Below, one piece after another: positions 9,898-30,502 of a stretch of 64,000 bases of DNA. The position numbers and the translations under genes are program-made. The DNA is from Chthonomonadaceae bacterium (GTDB taxonomy: Bacteria > Armatimonadota > Chthonomonadetes > Chthonomonadales > Chthonomonadaceae), in contig DASRGZ010000017.1 in the NCBI GenBank assembly GCA_035650735.1, forward strand, positions 1 through 64,000, given 5' to 3'. The notes beneath the pieces are model-generated. The model made no database searches, was not told the origin of the DNA, and was given only the letters and a program-made list of their open reading frames with translations. The number at the start of each line of letters is the position of its first letter. Within the stretch, counting starts at the first letter, position 1.

Positions 9898-9912
9898 CCG
9901 AACTGTTTTGTC

Positions 9913-10818
9913 ATGCCAACCAACGAGACGACCGACTGTAACGACCCGGATATTTACCGAGATCGGTTGTATGCCCTGGCCGCACCGGAAGATCGCAGCC
10001 AGCTAGAAGCCGCCTATGCGCTGGCGGCGCGCGCCCATAGCAACCAGTGGCGTCGCGTGGCCAGCGGCGTGCCTCCGGTGCCCTATATCGTTCATCCTCT
10101 GCGGGTGGCCTGCATCCTCGCCGAAGAGTGGGGGTGCCGAGATCGGCGCGCGCTGACCGCCTGCCTGCTCCACGACGTGCTGGAAGATGTTCCTGAGGCC
10201 GACCGTGCCCGCTACGCGCAGGAGATCCGCAAAGTGGCGGGGAAAGAAGTCCATGACGCCATCTGGACGTTGACCAAACCGGCCCCCGGACCGGCGGAGG
10301 TCAAAGCGGCCCGTGATGCGCGCTACTTTTCGGAACTACGGAACGCGCCCAGATGGGTACGCCTGATCAAGTGCGCCGACCGCGTGGATAACCTGCGGGA
10401 TGCCCGTGCCTGGGGGGACAAGGCTTTCTGGGAACGCTACAGTAGCGAAACCATCGGCTGGCATCTCTATCTGGCGCGGGAGACGGCGCCCATCGCCGAA
10501 GTGGCCCTGTTCGGCGCGCTGGTCGCCGGAGAGCGCGACATCCGGGGCCGCGTGCCCGTCTGGGTTGATGGGCATCTGGTGGATCCGAGCGCCGCCGCGC
10601 TCATCCCCGAAGAGATCGCCCGCCATCGGCACGCTATCGGGCTGGCGCTGCGGGGCGATACGCTCCTCGTTGCCATGCTCGATCCCGATGATGAGGACTG
10701 TATCATCACTCTGGGAAAGATTACGGGAAAGCGCATTGCGCCAGTGTCGGTCTCAGCCGAAGGGCTGCGCGATGCGCAGGTCGCCGGACTGTTTAAAAGG
10801 ATGAAGGCGGAAGGATAA
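9913..10818 (+). CDS. RelA/SpoT-type HD hydrolase (small alarmone hydrolase-like) with C-terminal T2SSE_N/PilB-N-like domain
   Basis: AHSNQWR..PYIVHP, LLHDVLED, LTK and LIKCADRVDNLRD. C-terminus DPSAAALIPEEIARHRHAIGL..GDTLLVAMLDP. Confidence 0.8.
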   Translation: MPTNETTDCNDPDIYRDRLYALAAPEDRSQLEAAYALAARAHSNQWRRVASGVPPVPYIVHPLRVACILAEEWGCRDRRALTACLLHDVLEDVPEADRARYAQEIRKVAGKEVHDAIWTLTKPAPGPAEVKAARDARYFSELRNAPRWVRLIKCADRVDNLRDARAWGDKAFWERYSSETIGWHLYLARETAPIAEVALFGALVAGERDIRGRVPVWVDGHLVDPSAAALIPEEIARHRHAIGLALRGDTLLVAMLDPDDEDCIITLGKITGKRIAPVSVSAEGLRDAQVAGLFKRMKAEG

Positions 10819-10958: not shown

Positions 10959-12164
10959 ATGAGCGAAGCATCTCCTTCCCCCGACGCCAGCGCGTCGGCG
11001 CCTTCCGAACGCTCTGCCTCGGGGCGTGCCCGGGCGGAAAGCGCGCCCGCCGTCCCAGGGCGGCTGCTTGGCGCGCATATGCCTACCGCCGGTGGATTGC
11101 ATAAGAGCCTGCTGGCCGGCAAAGCGATAGGCTGTACTGCCGTGCAGCTTTTTACCAGCAGTCCCCGCCAGTGGAGCCATCCGCCGCTGTCCGCTGAAGA
11201 GGTCGCGGCCTTCCACGCCGCGCGGGAGCAGACGGGCATCGCCTTTACCGTCGCCCACGATTCCTATCTCATCAACCTGGCCGCTCCCGCCGCCGATGTC
11301 CTCGAGCGCTCTCGGAAGGCGTTCCGGGCCGAGCTTGACCGCGCTAACCAACTGGGTATTCCCTGGGTTGTCACCCACATGGGAGCCCATCTCGATCAAG
11401 GCGAAGAGCCAGCTACCCAGCGCTTGATAGAAAGCTTGCAGCGCGTTCTGGAGGAGACCGATGCCGAAGGATACGCCGCGGGCGTGGCGCTGGAGACGAC
11501 GGCAGGGCAGGGCACCGGCCTGGGGTATCGCTTTGAGCAGCTGGCGGAGGTTCTGTCCGGCGTGGGGCCGCATCCACGCCTGGGCGTCTGCCTGGATACC
11601 TGCCACGTCTTTGTCGCGGGCTACGACCTGCGCGATCCGGACGCTTACCAGCAGACCTGGGCCGCTTTTGACGGCATCCTCGGCCTGGACAAGCTCAAAA
11701 TCATCCATGCTAACGACTCCAAGAAGCCCCTGGGCAGCCGCGTAGACCGCCATGAGCACATCGGCGAAGGCCAGATCGGCATCGGCGCCTTCGCGCGCCT
11801 GGTCACCGACCCACGCTTGGCGCATCTGCCCATCATTATCGAAACCCCCGACTCGGCCACGATGCACGCCGTCAACCTGGCGCGCCTGAAGCGGCTGGCG
11901 GCAGGAGGTGCGCTCGGCATGAACGTCACGGTTTATCTCTTCGGCCACTACAGCGATTACCTGGGCAGCGAGCCGCTGGAGATCACGCTGCCCTCCGGCG
12001 CCACCGGACGCGATCTGGCGGCCCTCCTGGTCGAGCGCGACTCGCGCCTGGCGGACCTGGCTTCCTACTGCCGCTGCGCCATCAACGAAGAGTACGCCGA
12101 CCTGGATACGGCCTTAACAGAGGGCTGCACGGTCGCCTTCATCCCCCCCATGAGCGGCGGATAA
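10959..12164 (+). CDS. nfo-moaD: Endonuclease IV fused to a C-terminal MoaD/ThiS sulfur carrier
   Basis: Nfo motifs LGAH, HDSYLINLA, HMG, LETTAGQG, CLDTCH, HANDSK, DRHEHIG and IIETP, followed in frame by MNVTVYLFG...AINEEY...VAFIPPMSGG*. Confidence 0.9.
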   Translation: MSEASPSPDASASAPSERSASGRARAESAPAVPGRLLGAHMPTAGGLHKSLLAGKAIGCTAVQLFTSSPRQWSHPPLSAEEVAAFHAAREQTGIAFTVAHDSYLINLAAPAADVLERSRKAFRAELDRANQLGIPWVVTHMGAHLDQGEEPATQRLIESLQRVLEETDAEGYAAGVALETTAGQGTGLGYRFEQLAEVLSGVGPHPRLGVCLDTCHVFVAGYDLRDPDAYQQTWAAFDGILGLDKLKIIHANDSKKPLGSRVDRHEHIGEGQIGIGAFARLVTDPRLAHLPIIIETPDSATMHAVNLARLKRLAAGGALGMNVTVYLFGHYSDYLGSEPLEITLPSGATGRDLAALLVERDSRLADLASYCRCAINEEYADLDTALTEGCTVAFIPPMSGG

Positions 12165-12187
12165 AGGGCAGTGAGGTAGAGGCAAGG

Positions 12188-12625
12188 ATGGCGGAGGTTA
12201 AGATAGGCAGCGCGCCGATTGACGTGGCGCAGTTGGAGGCGAAGGTCGGCGGGCATGCCAACGGGGCCGTCTGCACGTTTATCGGGCAGGTGCGCAAGAA
12301 TTCGCGCGGGCGGGAGGTGGCCTATCTGGAATACAACGCCTACGTGCCGATGGCCGAGAAGATGCTGCGCCGCATCGCCGAGGAAGCCGAGGCCCGTTGG
12401 GGCTGCGAGGTCGCCATTGCCCACCGCATCGGGCGCATCGAGTTGGGCGAGGCCAGCGTCGTCGTCGCCGTCGGCTCGCCCCATCGCGCCCAGGCGTTCG
12501 CGGCGTGCCGTCACTGCATTGATACGCTCAAAGAGACGGTTCCCATCTGGAAGCGCGAGGTCTGCCCGGATGGGACGTACTGGATCGAGGGAGAGGAAGC
12601 CCTCAAAGCCGAGGCCACTCCCTAA
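12188..12625 (+). CDS. moaE: Molybdopterin synthase catalytic subunit
   Basis: GAVCTFIGQVR, LEYNAY, HRIG, SPHR and LKETVPIWKRE. Confidence 0.95.
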   Translation: MAEVKIGSAPIDVAQLEAKVGGHANGAVCTFIGQVRKNSRGREVAYLEYNAYVPMAEKMLRRIAEEAEARWGCEVAIAHRIGRIELGEASVVVAVGSPHRAQAFAACRHCIDTLKETVPIWKREVCPDGTYWIEGEEALKAEATP

Positions 12626-12748: not shown

Positions 12749-13270
12749 ATGGGCCGGGCACTGGTTCTGTTGCTGGTGGCCGTAGCATCGGGCCTGCTCG
12801 TCTACTGGCTGGCGGCCCCACGCTTCCTGTCGCCTGCCAACACCGCGCCGGGCACGGTTGCCGCAACGGGGCCTGCGATGGCCTCCTCCCCATCGGGCTC
12901 TGAGCTACCCAACACTGCTTCCGCGCCGGCTGTCATTCCCGCACCGCGCACGCCCCAGCAGCAAGCGCGCGATGCTCTGGAGGCCCAGCGCGCCCCGTTC
13001 TACGCGCGCTTGCGCGTGCTCGGCCCCAACCTGGAGGCTTTTCGCTCTGCCGAGGACGATCCAGCTACCCTGGAACTTTATGCCGCCCGCGACGACCCAC
13101 AGCTTGTCTCCCAGTGGCTGGCCCAGATCGTCCAGCCGGACGCCTACCGCTATGGGTTCCGCCATGTCCGCTTCTTCCTGCCCGGCTCTCCCGACGGCGT
13201 GGAGCGCTACCGCCTGGATTCCGAGGCCAGTCTCGACGACCAGGGCCTCTGGCACGCTTTTCGCAAATGA
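12749..13270 (+). CDS. Hypothetical membrane-anchored protein
   Basis: RBS GGAGG, N-terminal TM helix and a Pro/Ala-rich linker. Confidence 0.75.
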   Translation: MGRALVLLLVAVASGLLVYWLAAPRFLSPANTAPGTVAATGPAMASSPSGSELPNTASAPAVIPAPRTPQQQARDALEAQRAPFYARLRVLGPNLEAFRSAEDDPATLELYAARDDPQLVSQWLAQIVQPDAYRYGFRHVRFFLPGSPDGVERYRLDSEASLDDQGLWHAFRK

Positions 13271-26304: not shown

Positions 26305-27089
26305 GCTCGTGTTTTCGCCTCCGGGGGCAGGGGCTTTCTTCCCAGGTGAATACAAACGGTGCCGAAATTCAGGTCGCGCACCTGGATTTCGCCCAGCCCG
26401 GCCCGCTCCATCGCCGCTGCCAGCTCCTCACGGGAGACGAACTGCTGCATCGACTCCGGCAGATAGGTGTAGGCTTCCCGGCGGCTGAGCAGCCCGCCGA
26501 TGCGTGGTAGGATGTGGAACAGGTAGAAATCCACGAACGGCCTGTACCAGCGGTCAGGCGGGCGGTTAAATTCGAGAATGACCACGCGCCCGCCCGGCTT
26601 GACGACGCGGGCCATCTCGCCAATAGCCCGCTCAATATGGGCGACATTGCGGATGCCAAAGCCGACGGTGGCGGCGTCGAAAGCGTTGGAGGGATAGGGA
26701 AGGGATTCGGCGTTGGCGACCATCATGGCGATGGGGCCGCCCCTAGCGCGGGCGATCTTGCCGAGGCCGTGGCGGATCATCGGCTCGCAGAAGTCGGCGC
26801 CGACCACGCGCCCGGTCGGGCCGACGGCGCGGGCTAGATCGAGGGCAAAGTCGCCGGTGCCAGTGCAGACATCCAGGCATCGGTCGCCAGGCTGTAGGCA
26901 GGCCATACGAACGGCCAGCCGCCGCCAGGCTTTGTGTTGGTTGAAGCTCAGGATGGCGTTGAGCAGATCATAGCGCGGCGCGATGCCCGCAAACATCTCG
27001 CGTACGTAGCGCTCTTTGTCGCCGGTATAGAGGGGGCGCGTCTGCCTGCCGCCCACCTGCCCCTGGTTCTGAAAGACTGCCCGCGCCAT
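26301..27089 (-). CDS. menG: Demethylmenaquinone methyltransferase
   Basis: VREMFAGIAPRYDLLN, LDVCTGTGD, GFGIRNV and AYTYLPES. Confidence 0.93.
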   Translation of the reverse strand: MARAVFQNQGQVGGRQTRPLYTGDKERYVREMFAGIAPRYDLLNAILSFNQHKAWRRLAVRMACLQPGDRCLDVCTGTGDFALDLARAVGPTGRVVGADFCEPMIRHGLGKIARARGGPIAMMVANAESLPYPSNAFDAATVGFGIRNVAHIERAIGEMARVVKPGGRVVILEFNRPPDRWYRPFVDFYLFHILPRIGGLLSRREAYTYLPESMQQFVSREELAAAMERAGLGEIQVRDLNFGTVCIHLGRKPLPPEAKTRA

Positions 27090-27402
27090 TGTATGCTCCG
27101 CTGCGCCGCTGCGCTTCCTGGCCGCCGGTCGCGAAGAGGTGCCTGCGCCTGACCAACTTCGTTGTCTTTTTCACAAATTGTGTGCCAGTATACCCCGCAA
27201 GCCCTCTTGCTGTCAATCAAAACCCGGCGGGTATATCCAAACGGCTGCCAGTGTTTTTACCGCGTCAAGTGGCGCACGCGATCCTGCCTGTAAGCTATTC
27301 GCCACGCCTCCCGCGCGCCGGCCATTCGCTTGTTTTTCCCGCGTTGCCAGACCGTCTGAGGGCCTTCGGCCATCCCGCCCCGTTGGAACTCCATTGGGTC
27401 GC

Positions 27403-27432
27403 TTGCGCGTTAATCCTGATAAATGCTATAAT
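27403..27432 (+). promoter_or_regulatory. Extended -10 promoter for the cysteine-synthase operon
   Basis: TTGCGC-18 bp-TATAAT with TG. Confidence 0.65.
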
Positions 27433-27505
27433 CAAAGTCAAGATAAAGCATCGCCAACCCCTAAACTTAGGGAACTGGCGGTTGGAGTCAGAAGTAGATA
27501 ACACC

Positions 27506-28504
27506 ATGAGCCTATCCGAAATGGGTGAACTCTATAGCGCGCTGCACGTCCCCAAGTCGAACGGGGCCGCAGTCCAATCTTCCCATGGGGTGGACCTGAT
27601 CGACCTGATCGGCAACACGCCCCTGATCCGCCTGCGGCGCGTGGTCCCGGACAACCCGCGGGTGGAGATCTACGGCAAGGCCGAATGGGCCAACCCCGGC
27701 GGCTCAGTCAAGGATCGGCCCGCTCTGAATATGATCCTGGAGGGCGAGCGGTCAGGACAACTGCGGCCCGGCAAGATCATCCTGGACGCCACTTCCGGCA
27801 ACACGGGCATCGCCTACGCCATGATCGGGGCGGCGCGCGGCTATCCGGTGCATCTGTGCCTGCCGGTCAACGCCAACGAGGAGCGCAAGCAACTGCTGCG
27901 CGCTTACGGCGCCCACCTGATTTTAACCGATCCGCGCCTCTCCTCCGACGGAGCCATCCTGAAGGCGCGCGAGCTTTATCAGGCGGACCCGGAGAAGTAT
28001 TTCTATCCCGATCAATACAATAACCCGGCCAACTGGCAGGCGCATTACCAGACTACCGCGCCGGAGATCTGGGCGCAGACGGAGGGGCGCGTCACCCACT
28101 TCGTCGCCGGGCTGGGCACCAGCGGCACGTTTGTGGGAACGGGGCGGCGGCTGCGCGAGCTCAATCCCCATATCCGCCTGATCTCCTTCCAGCCCGACTC
28201 GCCTTTTCACGGTCTGGAAGGCATGAAGCATATGGAATCCGCCATCGTCCCCGGCATCTATGACCCCACCCTGGCCGACGAGAACCGCGAGGTGGGCACG
28301 GAGGAGGCCCACGGGATGGTCAAGCGGCTGGCGCGCGAGGAGGGGATTCTGGTCGGCATCTCCGGGGGCGCCGCGCTGGTCTGCGCGCTGCGCGTTGCCG
28401 AGCAACTCGACGAGGGCGTGATCGTGACCATCTTTCCCGATAGCGGCACGCGATATCTCTCCGAACGGTTCTGGCAGGAGGACGAGGATGATCCGTCTGT
28501 CTGA
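27506..28504 (+). CDS. cysM: PLP-dependent cysteine synthase (CysM-type)
   Basis: IGNTPL, NPGGSVKDRPA, DATSGNTG and GLGTSGT. Confidence 0.9.
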   Translation: MSLSEMGELYSALHVPKSNGAAVQSSHGVDLIDLIGNTPLIRLRRVVPDNPRVEIYGKAEWANPGGSVKDRPALNMILEGERSGQLRPGKIILDATSGNTGIAYAMIGAARGYPVHLCLPVNANEERKQLLRAYGAHLILTDPRLSSDGAILKARELYQADPEKYFYPDQYNNPANWQAHYQTTAPEIWAQTEGRVTHFVAGLGTSGTFVGTGRRLRELNPHIRLISFQPDSPFHGLEGMKHMESAIVPGIYDPTLADENREVGTEEAHGMVKRLAREEGILVGISGGAALVCALRVAEQLDEGVIVTIFPDSGTRYLSERFWQEDEDDPSV

Positions 28505-28973
28505 GGCGCAGCGTGAAGCCATCCGTGCGCACGGCGCGCAAGAGTTCCCCTATGAATGCTGCGGCGTCCTGCTGGGCGATGTCGAGAACCGAGTCAAGAT
28601 CGTTCATGAAGTACGCCCGCTCAGGAACACTTTCCAGCCGGGCGCCGAGTTTGAGGAGCCAGCGTCTCCACAGACAGATTCGAGCCGAGAGGCGCAGGAA
28701 GCGGTTGGACGCGAGCGCCGCTACTTGATCTCGCCGGAGGAGATGCTGGCGTTGATGCAGGAGGAGCGCCGCACGAAGCGCAAGGTTCTCGGTTTCTATC
28801 ACTCGCATCCAAACCATCCGGCCCGGCCAAGCAAGTATGACTGGGAATGGGCCTTCCCCTGGTATACTTATATCATTGTCTCGGTGCTAAACGGAGAACC
28901 TGCCGATATGACGGCCTGGCAACAGGACGAAGACCGCCAGGCGTTTATACCCGAAGAGATCCAGGATTTTTGA
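28488..28973 (+). CDS. JAB/MPN+ (Mov34, M67) metalloprotease, Mec-like
   Basis: ECCG and FYHSHPNHPARPSKYD. Confidence 0.92.
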   Translation: MIRLSEAQREAIRAHGAQEFPYECCGVLLGDVENRVKIVHEVRPLRNTFQPGAEFEEPASPQTDSSREAQEAVGRERRYLISPEEMLALMQEERRTKRKVLGFYHSHPNHPARPSKYDWEWAFPWYTYIIVSVLNGEPADMTAWQQDEDRQAFIPEEIQDF

Positions 28974-28996
28974 ATTTGAAATGAGGTGAGCAGAGA

Positions 28997-30502
28997 ATGG
29001 CGAAAGTGCTTATCCCGACGGCGTTGCAGCAGTACGCAGGCGGGACGGACGAATTGGAGATACCGGGCGGCACCGTCAAGGAAGTGCTCAGCCATCTGGC
29101 CGAGCGCTACCCGGACTTGAAGAAGCATCTGTTGAACGAAAAGGGTGAATTGCGCCATTTCGTCAACATCTATAAGGGCGCGGAGGATACACGCAGCTTG
29201 CAGGGCTTGCAGACGCCCGTTGGCGATAACGACGAGCTCAGCATCGTGCCCAGCATCGCTGGCGGCACGGGGACGGTGGAGCGCCCGGCAGTCGGCGTGC
29301 CGCAGCCAGGCCGTGACGGCTTTGGCGTGATTGACACGGCGCGCGAAGAGGCCGCCACGCTCAGCAACGAGGAGATCCTGCGCTACAGCCGCCACCTCAT
29401 TCTGCCGGAGGTCGGGCTAGAGGGCCAGAAGAAGCTCAAAGCCGCGAAGGTGCTCTGCATCGGCGCGGGCGGACTCGGTTCGCCGCTGGCGCTCTATCTG
29501 GCCGCCGCTGGCGTCGGGACGATTGGCCTAGTGGATTTTGACGCGGTAGACCTGACCAATTTGCAGCGCCAGATCATTCACGGCACCAACGATGTGGGGC
29601 GTCCTAAGCTGCAATCGGCGATAGAGGCCATCAAGGACATCAACCCGAATGTCGAGGTTATTGGGTTTGAGGATCGGTTTACCTCCGACAACGCGATGCA
29701 GATCGTGCGCGATTTCGACATCGTCGTTGACGGCACGGACAACTTCCCGACCCGCTACCTGACCAATGACGTGTGCGTGCTGCTCGGCAAGCCCAACGTC
29801 TACGGTTCCATCTTCCGGTTTGAGGGGCAGGCATCGGTGTTCTGGGCGGAGAAGGGGCCGTGCTATCGCTGCCTCTATCCCGAGCCGCCGCCTCCGGGAC
29901 TGGTGCCCTCGTGCGCGGAGGGCGGCGTTCTGGGCGTGCTGCCGGGCATCGTCGGCTGCATCCAGGCAAACGAGGCTATCAAGCTGATCCTGGGCATCGG
30001 CCAGCCGCTCATCGGGCGGCTGCTGCTCTTCAACGCGCTCAAGATGGAGTTCCGCCCGTTGAGGCTGCGCAAAGACCCGAACTGCCCGATCTGCGGGGAG
30101 CATCCCACCATCCACGAGCTGATCGATTACGAGCAGTTCTGCGGCATTCGCGGCGAGGAGACGGAGCCGCAGCCGGTGGAGGAGAGCGAGGAGATCACGG
30201 TTCGCGAGCTCAAGGAGCGCATGGATCGCGGCGAAGCCCTGACCATTATTGACGTGCGCGAGCCGCACGAATACGCCATCGCGCGCATTCCCGGCACCAG
30301 ACTCATCCCGCTGGGCCAGGTCGCCGAGCGGGCGGTCGAACTCGACCCGAACGCCGAGATTATCCTGCACTGCCGCTCCGGCAAGCGCAGCGCGGATGCT
30401 CTCAATCAGCTCAAGGCCCGCGGGTTCAAGCGTCTGAAGAACCTCAAGGGTGGCATTCTGGCCTGGAGCGAAGAGATCGATCCTACCGTTCCGAAGTACT
30501 GA
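28997..30502 (+). CDS. moeZ: ThiS/MoaD(CysO)-like Ubl + MoeB E1 + rhodanese fusion
   Basis: Ubl domain ending VPSIAGG (aa 89-90), RYSRH, GAGGLG, NLQRQ, CYRC and PSCAEGGV. Rhodanese IDVREP..HCRSGKRS. Confidence 0.93.
   Translation: MAKVLIPTALQQYAGGTDELEIPGGTVKEVLSHLAERYPDLKKHLLNEKGELRHFVNIYKGAEDTRSLQGLQTPVGDNDELSIVPSIAGGTGTVERPAVGVPQPGRDGFGVIDTAREEAATLSNEEILRYSRHLILPEVGLEGQKKLKAAKVLCIGAGGLGSPLALYLAAAGVGTIGLVDFDAVDLTNLQRQIIHGTNDVGRPKLQSAIEAIKDINPNVEVIGFEDRFTSDNAMQIVRDFDIVVDGTDNFPTRYLTNDVCVLLGKPNVYGSIFRFEGQASVFWAEKGPCYRCLYPEPPPPGLVPSCAEGGVLGVLPGIVGCIQANEAIKLILGIGQPLIGRLLLFNALKMEFRPLRLRKDPNCPICGEHPTIHELIDYEQFCGIRGEETEPQPVEESEEITVRELKERMDRGEALTIIDVREPHEYAIARIPGTRLIPLGQVAERAVELDPNAEIILHCRSGKRSADALNQLKARGFKRLKNLKGGILAWSEEIDPTVPKY

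Follow-up and report, generated by a model that had tools for sequence, protein, structure and literature searches.

In the known pathway to the molybdenum cofactor, an E1 enzyme adenylates the terminal glycine of the carrier MoaD and sulfur is loaded as a thiocarboxylate (PMC5372717), and the mycobacterial E1 MoeZR serves both MoaD and CysO (PMC3227635). Several fusions of enzymes to ubiquitin-like (Ubl) domains of this kind are known. Aldehyde ferredoxin oxidoreductase-MoaD of Azoarcus and sulfite reductase-ThiS of actinobacteria have the Ubl as their C-terminal part and end in a free Gly-Gly (PMC1779556). Cgi121-Ubl of Thaumarchaea and the Ubl-Mut7-C RNase are lineage-wide fusions with a partner from nucleic-acid metabolism (PMC2948915, PMC1779556), and DR2607 of Deinococcus is a MoaD-MoaE fusion that is cut by a JAMM peptidase (PMC8832034).

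The protein described here joins an endonuclease IV (Nfo) to a MoaD domain and is encoded in a window of 64,000 nucleotides from a Chthonomonadaceae bacterium, the whole stretch of DNA that was analysed (Table 1). It shares the C-terminal position and the free Gly-Gly end with the oxidoreductase and reductase fusions, but their partners belong to pterin-cofactor or sulfur metabolism, whereas we know of no tie of Nfo to either. As in the Cgi121 and Mut7-C fusions, the architecture is lineage-wide and the partner acts on nucleic acids, although their partners are RNA-related rather than DNA-related and their Ubls are not known as moaE-linked carriers. DR2607 likewise has a fused MoaD of the same pathway, but its Gly-Gly is masked until a cut frees it, whereas here the Gly-Gly is free and a cut is unneeded. 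Compared with the usual MoaD/MoaE synthase activated by MoeB or MoeZR, the locus has the same beta-grasp fold, terminal Gly-Gly, adjoining moaE and loss together with moaE and moaC. It differs by the 315-aa nuclease at the N-terminus of the small subunit and, in 18 of 32 genomes, by a small subunit without its own start codon. The original prediction knew of no described Nfo-MoaD fusion, and no report of one was found in the literature searched, mainly the main texts of open-access papers. The same search found no paper on an nfo-moaD operon or on Chthonomonas molybdopterin. The word "endonuclease" is absent from the main text of PMC1779556 and PMC1949818, and the accessible portions of PMC1949818 and PMC6147048 do not report Nfo-MoaD.

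Table 1. Features of the nfo-moaD locus and of the E1 gene cluster in the window
Feature	Position	Strand	Remarks
HD + MshEN-domain gene, 5' of nfo	9910..10818	+	start uncertain; ORF list opens at GTG 9634
nfo-moaD fusion ORF	10959..12164	+	401 aa, ATG 10959 to TAA 12162-12164, no internal stop
Ser/Ala/Pro-rich N-terminal extension, aa 1-32	10959..11054	+	weakly conserved
Endonuclease IV TIM barrel, aa 33-315	11055..11903	+	TIGR00587, 1QTW alignment, conservation, Foldseek
Shine-Dalgarno-like AGGAGGT	11903..11909	+	inside linker codons Ala-Gly-Gly
Short linker GGALG, aa 316-320	11904..11918	+	six residues in the model; block pLDDT 75
MoaD-type beta-grasp domain, aa 321-401 (81 aa)	11919..12164	+	in-frame ATG to free C-terminal Gly-Gly
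moaE, molybdopterin synthase large subunit	12188..12625	+	PF02391, E 3.7e-39; one copy in genome
Gene for protein with hydrophobic N-terminus, no Pfam family	12749..13270	+	follows moaE
JAB peptidase gene	28488-28973		5' of the 28997 E1, along with a PLP enzyme gene
ThiS-ThiF-rhodanese, MoeZ-like E1	28997..30502	+	sole full-length ThiF match in genome

The single reading frame without a stop between Nfo and MoaD, as originally predicted, was confirmed. Three public runs, each from a different study, have assembled contigs that span the junction and agree with it at every position, but each of these runs may be the source of this DNA. Pfam places AP_endonuc_2 at aa 55-306 (E 6.5e-56) and ThiS/MoaD at aa 325-401 (E 1.4e-12), and the protein ends in PPMSGG. 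The matches of relatives to the protein mostly begin at aa 10-34. An AlphaFold2 model of residues 33-401, built with a 60-row alignment (pLDDT 92.9, pTM 0.82), shows the TIM barrel followed by a short linker and the beta-grasp domain. This pTM says nothing on a fixed orientation of the domains, because Nfo alone makes up 77 % of the modelled chain.

The nuclease half passes TIGR00587 (nfo) with 280.5 bits against a cut-off of 129.65, and four PRK01060 equivalog models score it below their cut-offs. Residues 36-299 align with E. coli endonuclease IV (PDB 1QTW, about 41 % identity), which also provides the best Foldseek matches of the model (TM-score 0.95 over the target, rmsd about 1.5 A) and confirms the TIM-barrel fold; the E. 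coli enzyme differs in that it does not bear the 81-aa beta-grasp domain. The metal-ligand motifs, expected to be intact, are complete with all nine ligands (H100, H140, E179, D213, H216, H250, D263, H265 and E295), taking as reference the E. coli residues that we assume to be the metal ligands, and the DNA-contact residues R70 and Y103 are present. The titles of matched endonuclease IV structure entries name H69, Y72 and E261. All 48 fused proteins have eight of the ligands, and 47 of them also have the ninth; Tyr103 is invariant, and the position of Arg70 holds Arg or Lys. With these residues, the Nfo half would incise DNA at abasic sites via a three-metal site.

The MoaD half scores 48.4 against 22.5 bits with PF02597, and the strand and helix pattern is seen in the model. 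It falls short of the moaD equivalog TIGR01682 (56.6 against a cut-off of 66.15 bits), which weighs little since just 5 of the 11 control genomes matching this model exceed the cut-off. The Gly-Gly terminus is found in 71 of 71 aligned rows (duplicates included), one with an extra Gln. This fused MoaD, L047 (G306), ends in Gly-Gly-Gln, and either trimming by a JAB-type peptidase is needed or it is damaged. Identity among MoaD domains is similar in fused (44 %) and split (43 %) genera. In the MoaD half, C371 (12069-12071) hardly varies within the order, being shared by 69 of 71 aligned rows irrespective of fusion, and Thr or Ser takes its place in many MoaDs of the phylum's other families. Such families also have linear MoaD-MoaE fusions (L041, L043).

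In its distribution, the MoaD half goes with the molybdenum-cofactor pathway rather than with Nfo. moaE starts 23 nt 3' of the fusion ORF, and this genome (G000) has moaA-, moaC- and moeA-type genes; three molybdoenzyme families are also represented in it. Among 61 scorable genomes, a set that excludes G221, whose contig ends within nfo, 45 have both an nfo-adjacent moaD and moaE, 14 have neither and two have moaE elsewhere; an nfo-adjacent moaD without moaE was found in none of the 61. This coupling corresponds to only 4 independent pairs (sign test, p 0.25). All 14 genomes without moaE have a bare Nfo, and moaC is absent too from the 10 near-complete genomes of this type in a set of 41. In relatives without moaD and moaE, the gene that follows moaE here, the most constant nfo neighbour across the order, abuts nfo directly. 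In G036 (L028, protein P0054), which has neither moaE nor moaC, the Nfo tail consists of the linker and the first MoaD strand, a decayed relic of the fusion. A possible MoaD relic 3' of the nfo stop in G004 was too short for a claim.

Given the known pathway and this co-occurrence, the MoaD half would be the molybdopterin synthase small subunit of the genome, and it is intact and probably the working sulfur carrier for MoaE. Its likely activator is the MoeZ-like E1, which would adenylate the C-terminal glycine for subsequent thiocarboxylation, whereupon the tail would enter MoaE and give sulfur to cPMP. Nfo is attached at the MoaD N-terminus, so that the Gly-Gly tail would stay free. In folds of these kinds, the beta-grasp N-terminus is generally remote from the tail, and the end of the last barrel helix does not lie on the DNA-binding face; neither half need therefore block the other. 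MoaD has tolerated fusion at either end in expression tests, whose scope did not extend to sulfur transfer (PMC3906898). A thiocarboxylated nuclease docked on MoaE, as put forward in the original prediction, is thus likely as a side effect of an intact and probably working carrier.

The PLP enzyme, JAB peptidase and ThiS-ThiF-rhodanese genes form one cluster (27089-30502), which, by comparison with CysM, Mec and CysO, we take to be of the cysteine-synthesis type. The cluster resembles the CysM/Mec/CysO/MoeZ route, but its carrier is fused to the front of the E1. One MoeZ-like E1 would serve several carriers, and the service of two carriers by mycobacterial MoeZR (PMC3227635) fits one shared E1 here. 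A second gene of the ThiF family (G000:C224:86601-87245) is short and has no rhodanese domain. Besides the one in the 28997 E1, other ThiS-type domains of this genome lie after a gene on C81, which reads like a threonine synthase, and after a gene on C98. The latter is a stand-alone protein (G000:C98:18823-19092) 3' of a xanthine-oxidase-family gene, with a blocked tail, Gly-Gly-Arg-Ser-Glu. The HD-domain protein 5' of nfo, with its fused MshEN domain, has weak RelA/SpoT similarity, and its gene is kept there in several relatives.

The order was represented by 68 genomes, of which 63 had a match. The nfo end could be read in 62, leaving out the five genomes without a match and G014, in which moaD was found and nfo was not; by eye, G319 was classified as split and G033, G034 and G039 as bare Nfo. 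The genes are fused in 32 of these genomes (24 genera, three families), adjacent and separate in 13 (8 genera), and without an adjacent moaD in 17. Within the first 30 loci from 41 related genomes, moaD lies beside nfo in 26, 21 fused and 5 split. Residues 285-401, used as a query against proteins of 220-702 aa, yielded 48 clusters out of 731 candidates, and each cluster has both Pfam domains. Where sources give the fused proteins a name, it is deoxyribonuclease IV only, and one adds Chthonomonadaceae. One further protein, P0072, is an Nfo with a 100-residue tail resembling a frameshifted version of the fusion. The original prediction would have fallen if all relatives had a stop between nfo and moaD, but the domain architecture is conserved among them. 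This conservation is a stronger proof than the identical contigs against a sequencing error or a private stop loss as the origin of the fusion. Relatives with separate nfo and moaD exist, but nothing else speaks for such an origin, which is refuted by the conservation and has a negligible probability.

Among 301 genomes of the phylum, whole-junction matches came from the same order only, among the matches listed (56 weak matches are unlisted). A junction profile searched against 1.84 billion representatives matched 12,499 proteins, and 6 of the best 150 span both halves; all six bear the MoaD signature of this clade, which suggests their taxon. Two contig scans covering at least 160 nfo loci gave a MoaD-profile match in at least 10, of which those listed comprise five titled Chthonomonadaceae, three metagenome contigs and two of the split type, one of these titled Armatimonadota. 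No fusion outside the order was found in the phylum genomes, protein representatives or contig scans, among the matches listed, and the fusion seems restricted to this order. One family from outside it has nfo and moaD adjacent in 5 of 18 genomes; in the three loci read, the genes overlap by ATGA, are unfused, and moaE lies elsewhere. In these five as in the 13 split genomes of the order, nfo and moaD are translationally coupled, with overlaps or gaps of -10 to +7 nt. The adjacency therefore reaches further than the fusion does.

On a quick Nfo tree, the fused or split state changed about 7 times, once inside a genus, and split clades are sisters of fused genes. The shared linker in three families and the relic in G036 suggest an old fusion with several fissions, and fusions with odd linkers beside split lineages may be re-fusions. 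Since both trees are quick trees with many inner branches open, one fusion with several fissions is indistinguishable from several fusions. Pure drift explains the join poorly, because it was kept in 24 genera (Nfo mean 64 % identity) and in 32 of the 45 genomes able to have it.

The positions of AGGAGGT and of the in-frame ATG (codon 321), 9 nt after it, are as originally predicted. The site ranks among the strongest of the genome: of 3000 internal ATGs sampled, one equals its pairing with a short anti-SD probe (-11.6 kcal/mol), and GGAGG precedes 1.6 % of 17,647 internal ATGs against 13 % of 1009 likely true starts in the genome. This comparison overstates the case, because the linker encodes Gly-Gly and 1048 of 8970 genomic Gly-Gly pairs (12 %) start with GGA and thus spell GGAGG by codon usage alone. 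Folding of the 61-nt region does not differ from shuffles (z 0.27). In the region from -3 to +1 codons around the MoaD start, 11 of the 32 fusions have an ATG and 14 have any common start codon, whereas 18 have no ATG, GTG or TTG nearby. GGAGG stands before the MoaD start in 4 of the 11 fusions that have an ATG (3 of 9 genera), in none of the 21 that do not (0 of 15 genera), and in 8 of 12 split moaD genes. The motif with its ATG is kept in the congeneric G001, although just 96 of 180 four-fold sites agree between the two, and a separate lineage (L027, L052) spells GGAGG with different amino acids. Hence, the internal ribosome-binding site of the original prediction stands as plausible in this genus and two other lineages, but it is no general feature, GGAGG with ATG being found in 4 of 32 fusions. 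Dual products, Nfo-MoaD and free MoaD, are plausible in this genus, and in this genome the chance that a free 81-aa MoaD is also made from this site appears about even.

It is a different matter whether only free MoaD, released by internal initiation or proteolysis, works in cofactor synthesis while the copy on Nfo is idle. The strong site here, its retention in G001, its association with an ATG and its independent spelling would all fit, but the association is not significant on independent pairs, a Met lies near the junction in just 19 of 48 fused proteins, and more than half of the fusions have no start codon there. For proteolysis, JAMM peptidases cut after the MoaD Gly-Gly, not N-terminal to the domain (PMC8832034). 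Five fusions lack an ATG where MoaD begins; in their genomes the fused domain gives the best match to TIGR01682 and the sole other is far weaker, so that MoaD must come from the full-length protein or from a cut product. An idle fused copy is therefore quite unlikely, and in the start-less fusions the full-length protein is probably the molybdopterin synthase small subunit. The synthase of these lineages (18 of 32) would then carry the nuclease as a passenger, as (Nfo-MoaD)2(MoaE)2.

A tolerated fusion of the operon neighbours nfo and moaD, with each half doing its usual job, is the probable reading. The two genes would have been joined in frame in the ancestry of the order, with the join tolerated rather than required, and since it comes and goes between relatives, a chain shared by two neighbours is more probable than a new pathway. 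The long retention of the join and its short, mostly constant linker would also be expected if the fusion had been selected as a coupling of repair and cofactor synthesis, in which MoaE dimerises or sequesters Nfo or damage draws the carrier off MoaE. The adjacency of nfo and moaD in the outside family, even where moaE lies elsewhere, points the same way. Such a coupling is nevertheless unlikely, as the halves are split in 13 genomes, 14 have lost moaD and moaE yet keep Nfo, and no such fusion was found outside the order among the matches listed. The Nfo positions that are better conserved in fused genes than in others group at the linker (312-316), and the fused-specific differences at D298 and R117 do not exceed the 95 % level of a shuffle that ignores phylogeny. 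The link between AP-site repair and sulfur or cofactor metabolism in the original prediction is not supported: relatives repeatedly split the halves and drop the MoaD half whenever moaE is missing, while keeping Nfo. A complex of synthase and AP endonuclease by design is unlikely as well; in it, the nuclease would be adenylated and thiocarboxylated at its tail and dimerised on MoaE, and either its activity would follow sulfur loading or the tail would ligate it to partner proteins under stress.

The MoaD tail could also be a built-in ubiquitin-like tag, activated by the E1 so that the whole nuclease is conjugated to lysines of partners, with reversal by the JAB peptidase. The free Gly-Gly, the E1 and JAB genes within the same window, and the described conjugation of TtuB and SAMP2 (PMC5372717) make this conceivable. 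The two genes, though, sit in the cysteine-synthesis-type cluster with the PLP enzyme gene, and the human cofactor carrier MOCS2A cannot conjugate proteins (PMC5372717). The domain is lost together with moaE, as expected of a molybdenum-cofactor carrier; none of the 14 genomes without moaE keeps it beside nfo, whereas retention independent of this pathway would be expected of a conjugated Ubl such as TtuB or SAMP. A tag is very improbable, and nothing was found in support of the conjugation to partners that the original prediction had considered.

The preferred reading remains that of neighbours tolerated on one chain: Nfo-MoaD is lineage-wide and real, and new chemistry is probably absent. 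It is an order-wide architecture that databases label as endonuclease IV only, so that the genomes appear to lack moaD. The fused, split, SD-bearing and relic alleles provide a natural series of how neighbour fusions arise, keep or lose an internal start, and break. For the start-less lineages, the prediction is that a DNA-repair enzyme of 43 kDa serves as the small subunit of molybdopterin synthase. The fusion would matter far more if the join proved functional; a complex by design, if true, would connect base-excision repair with the sulfur traffic of the cofactor through a direct physical switch.
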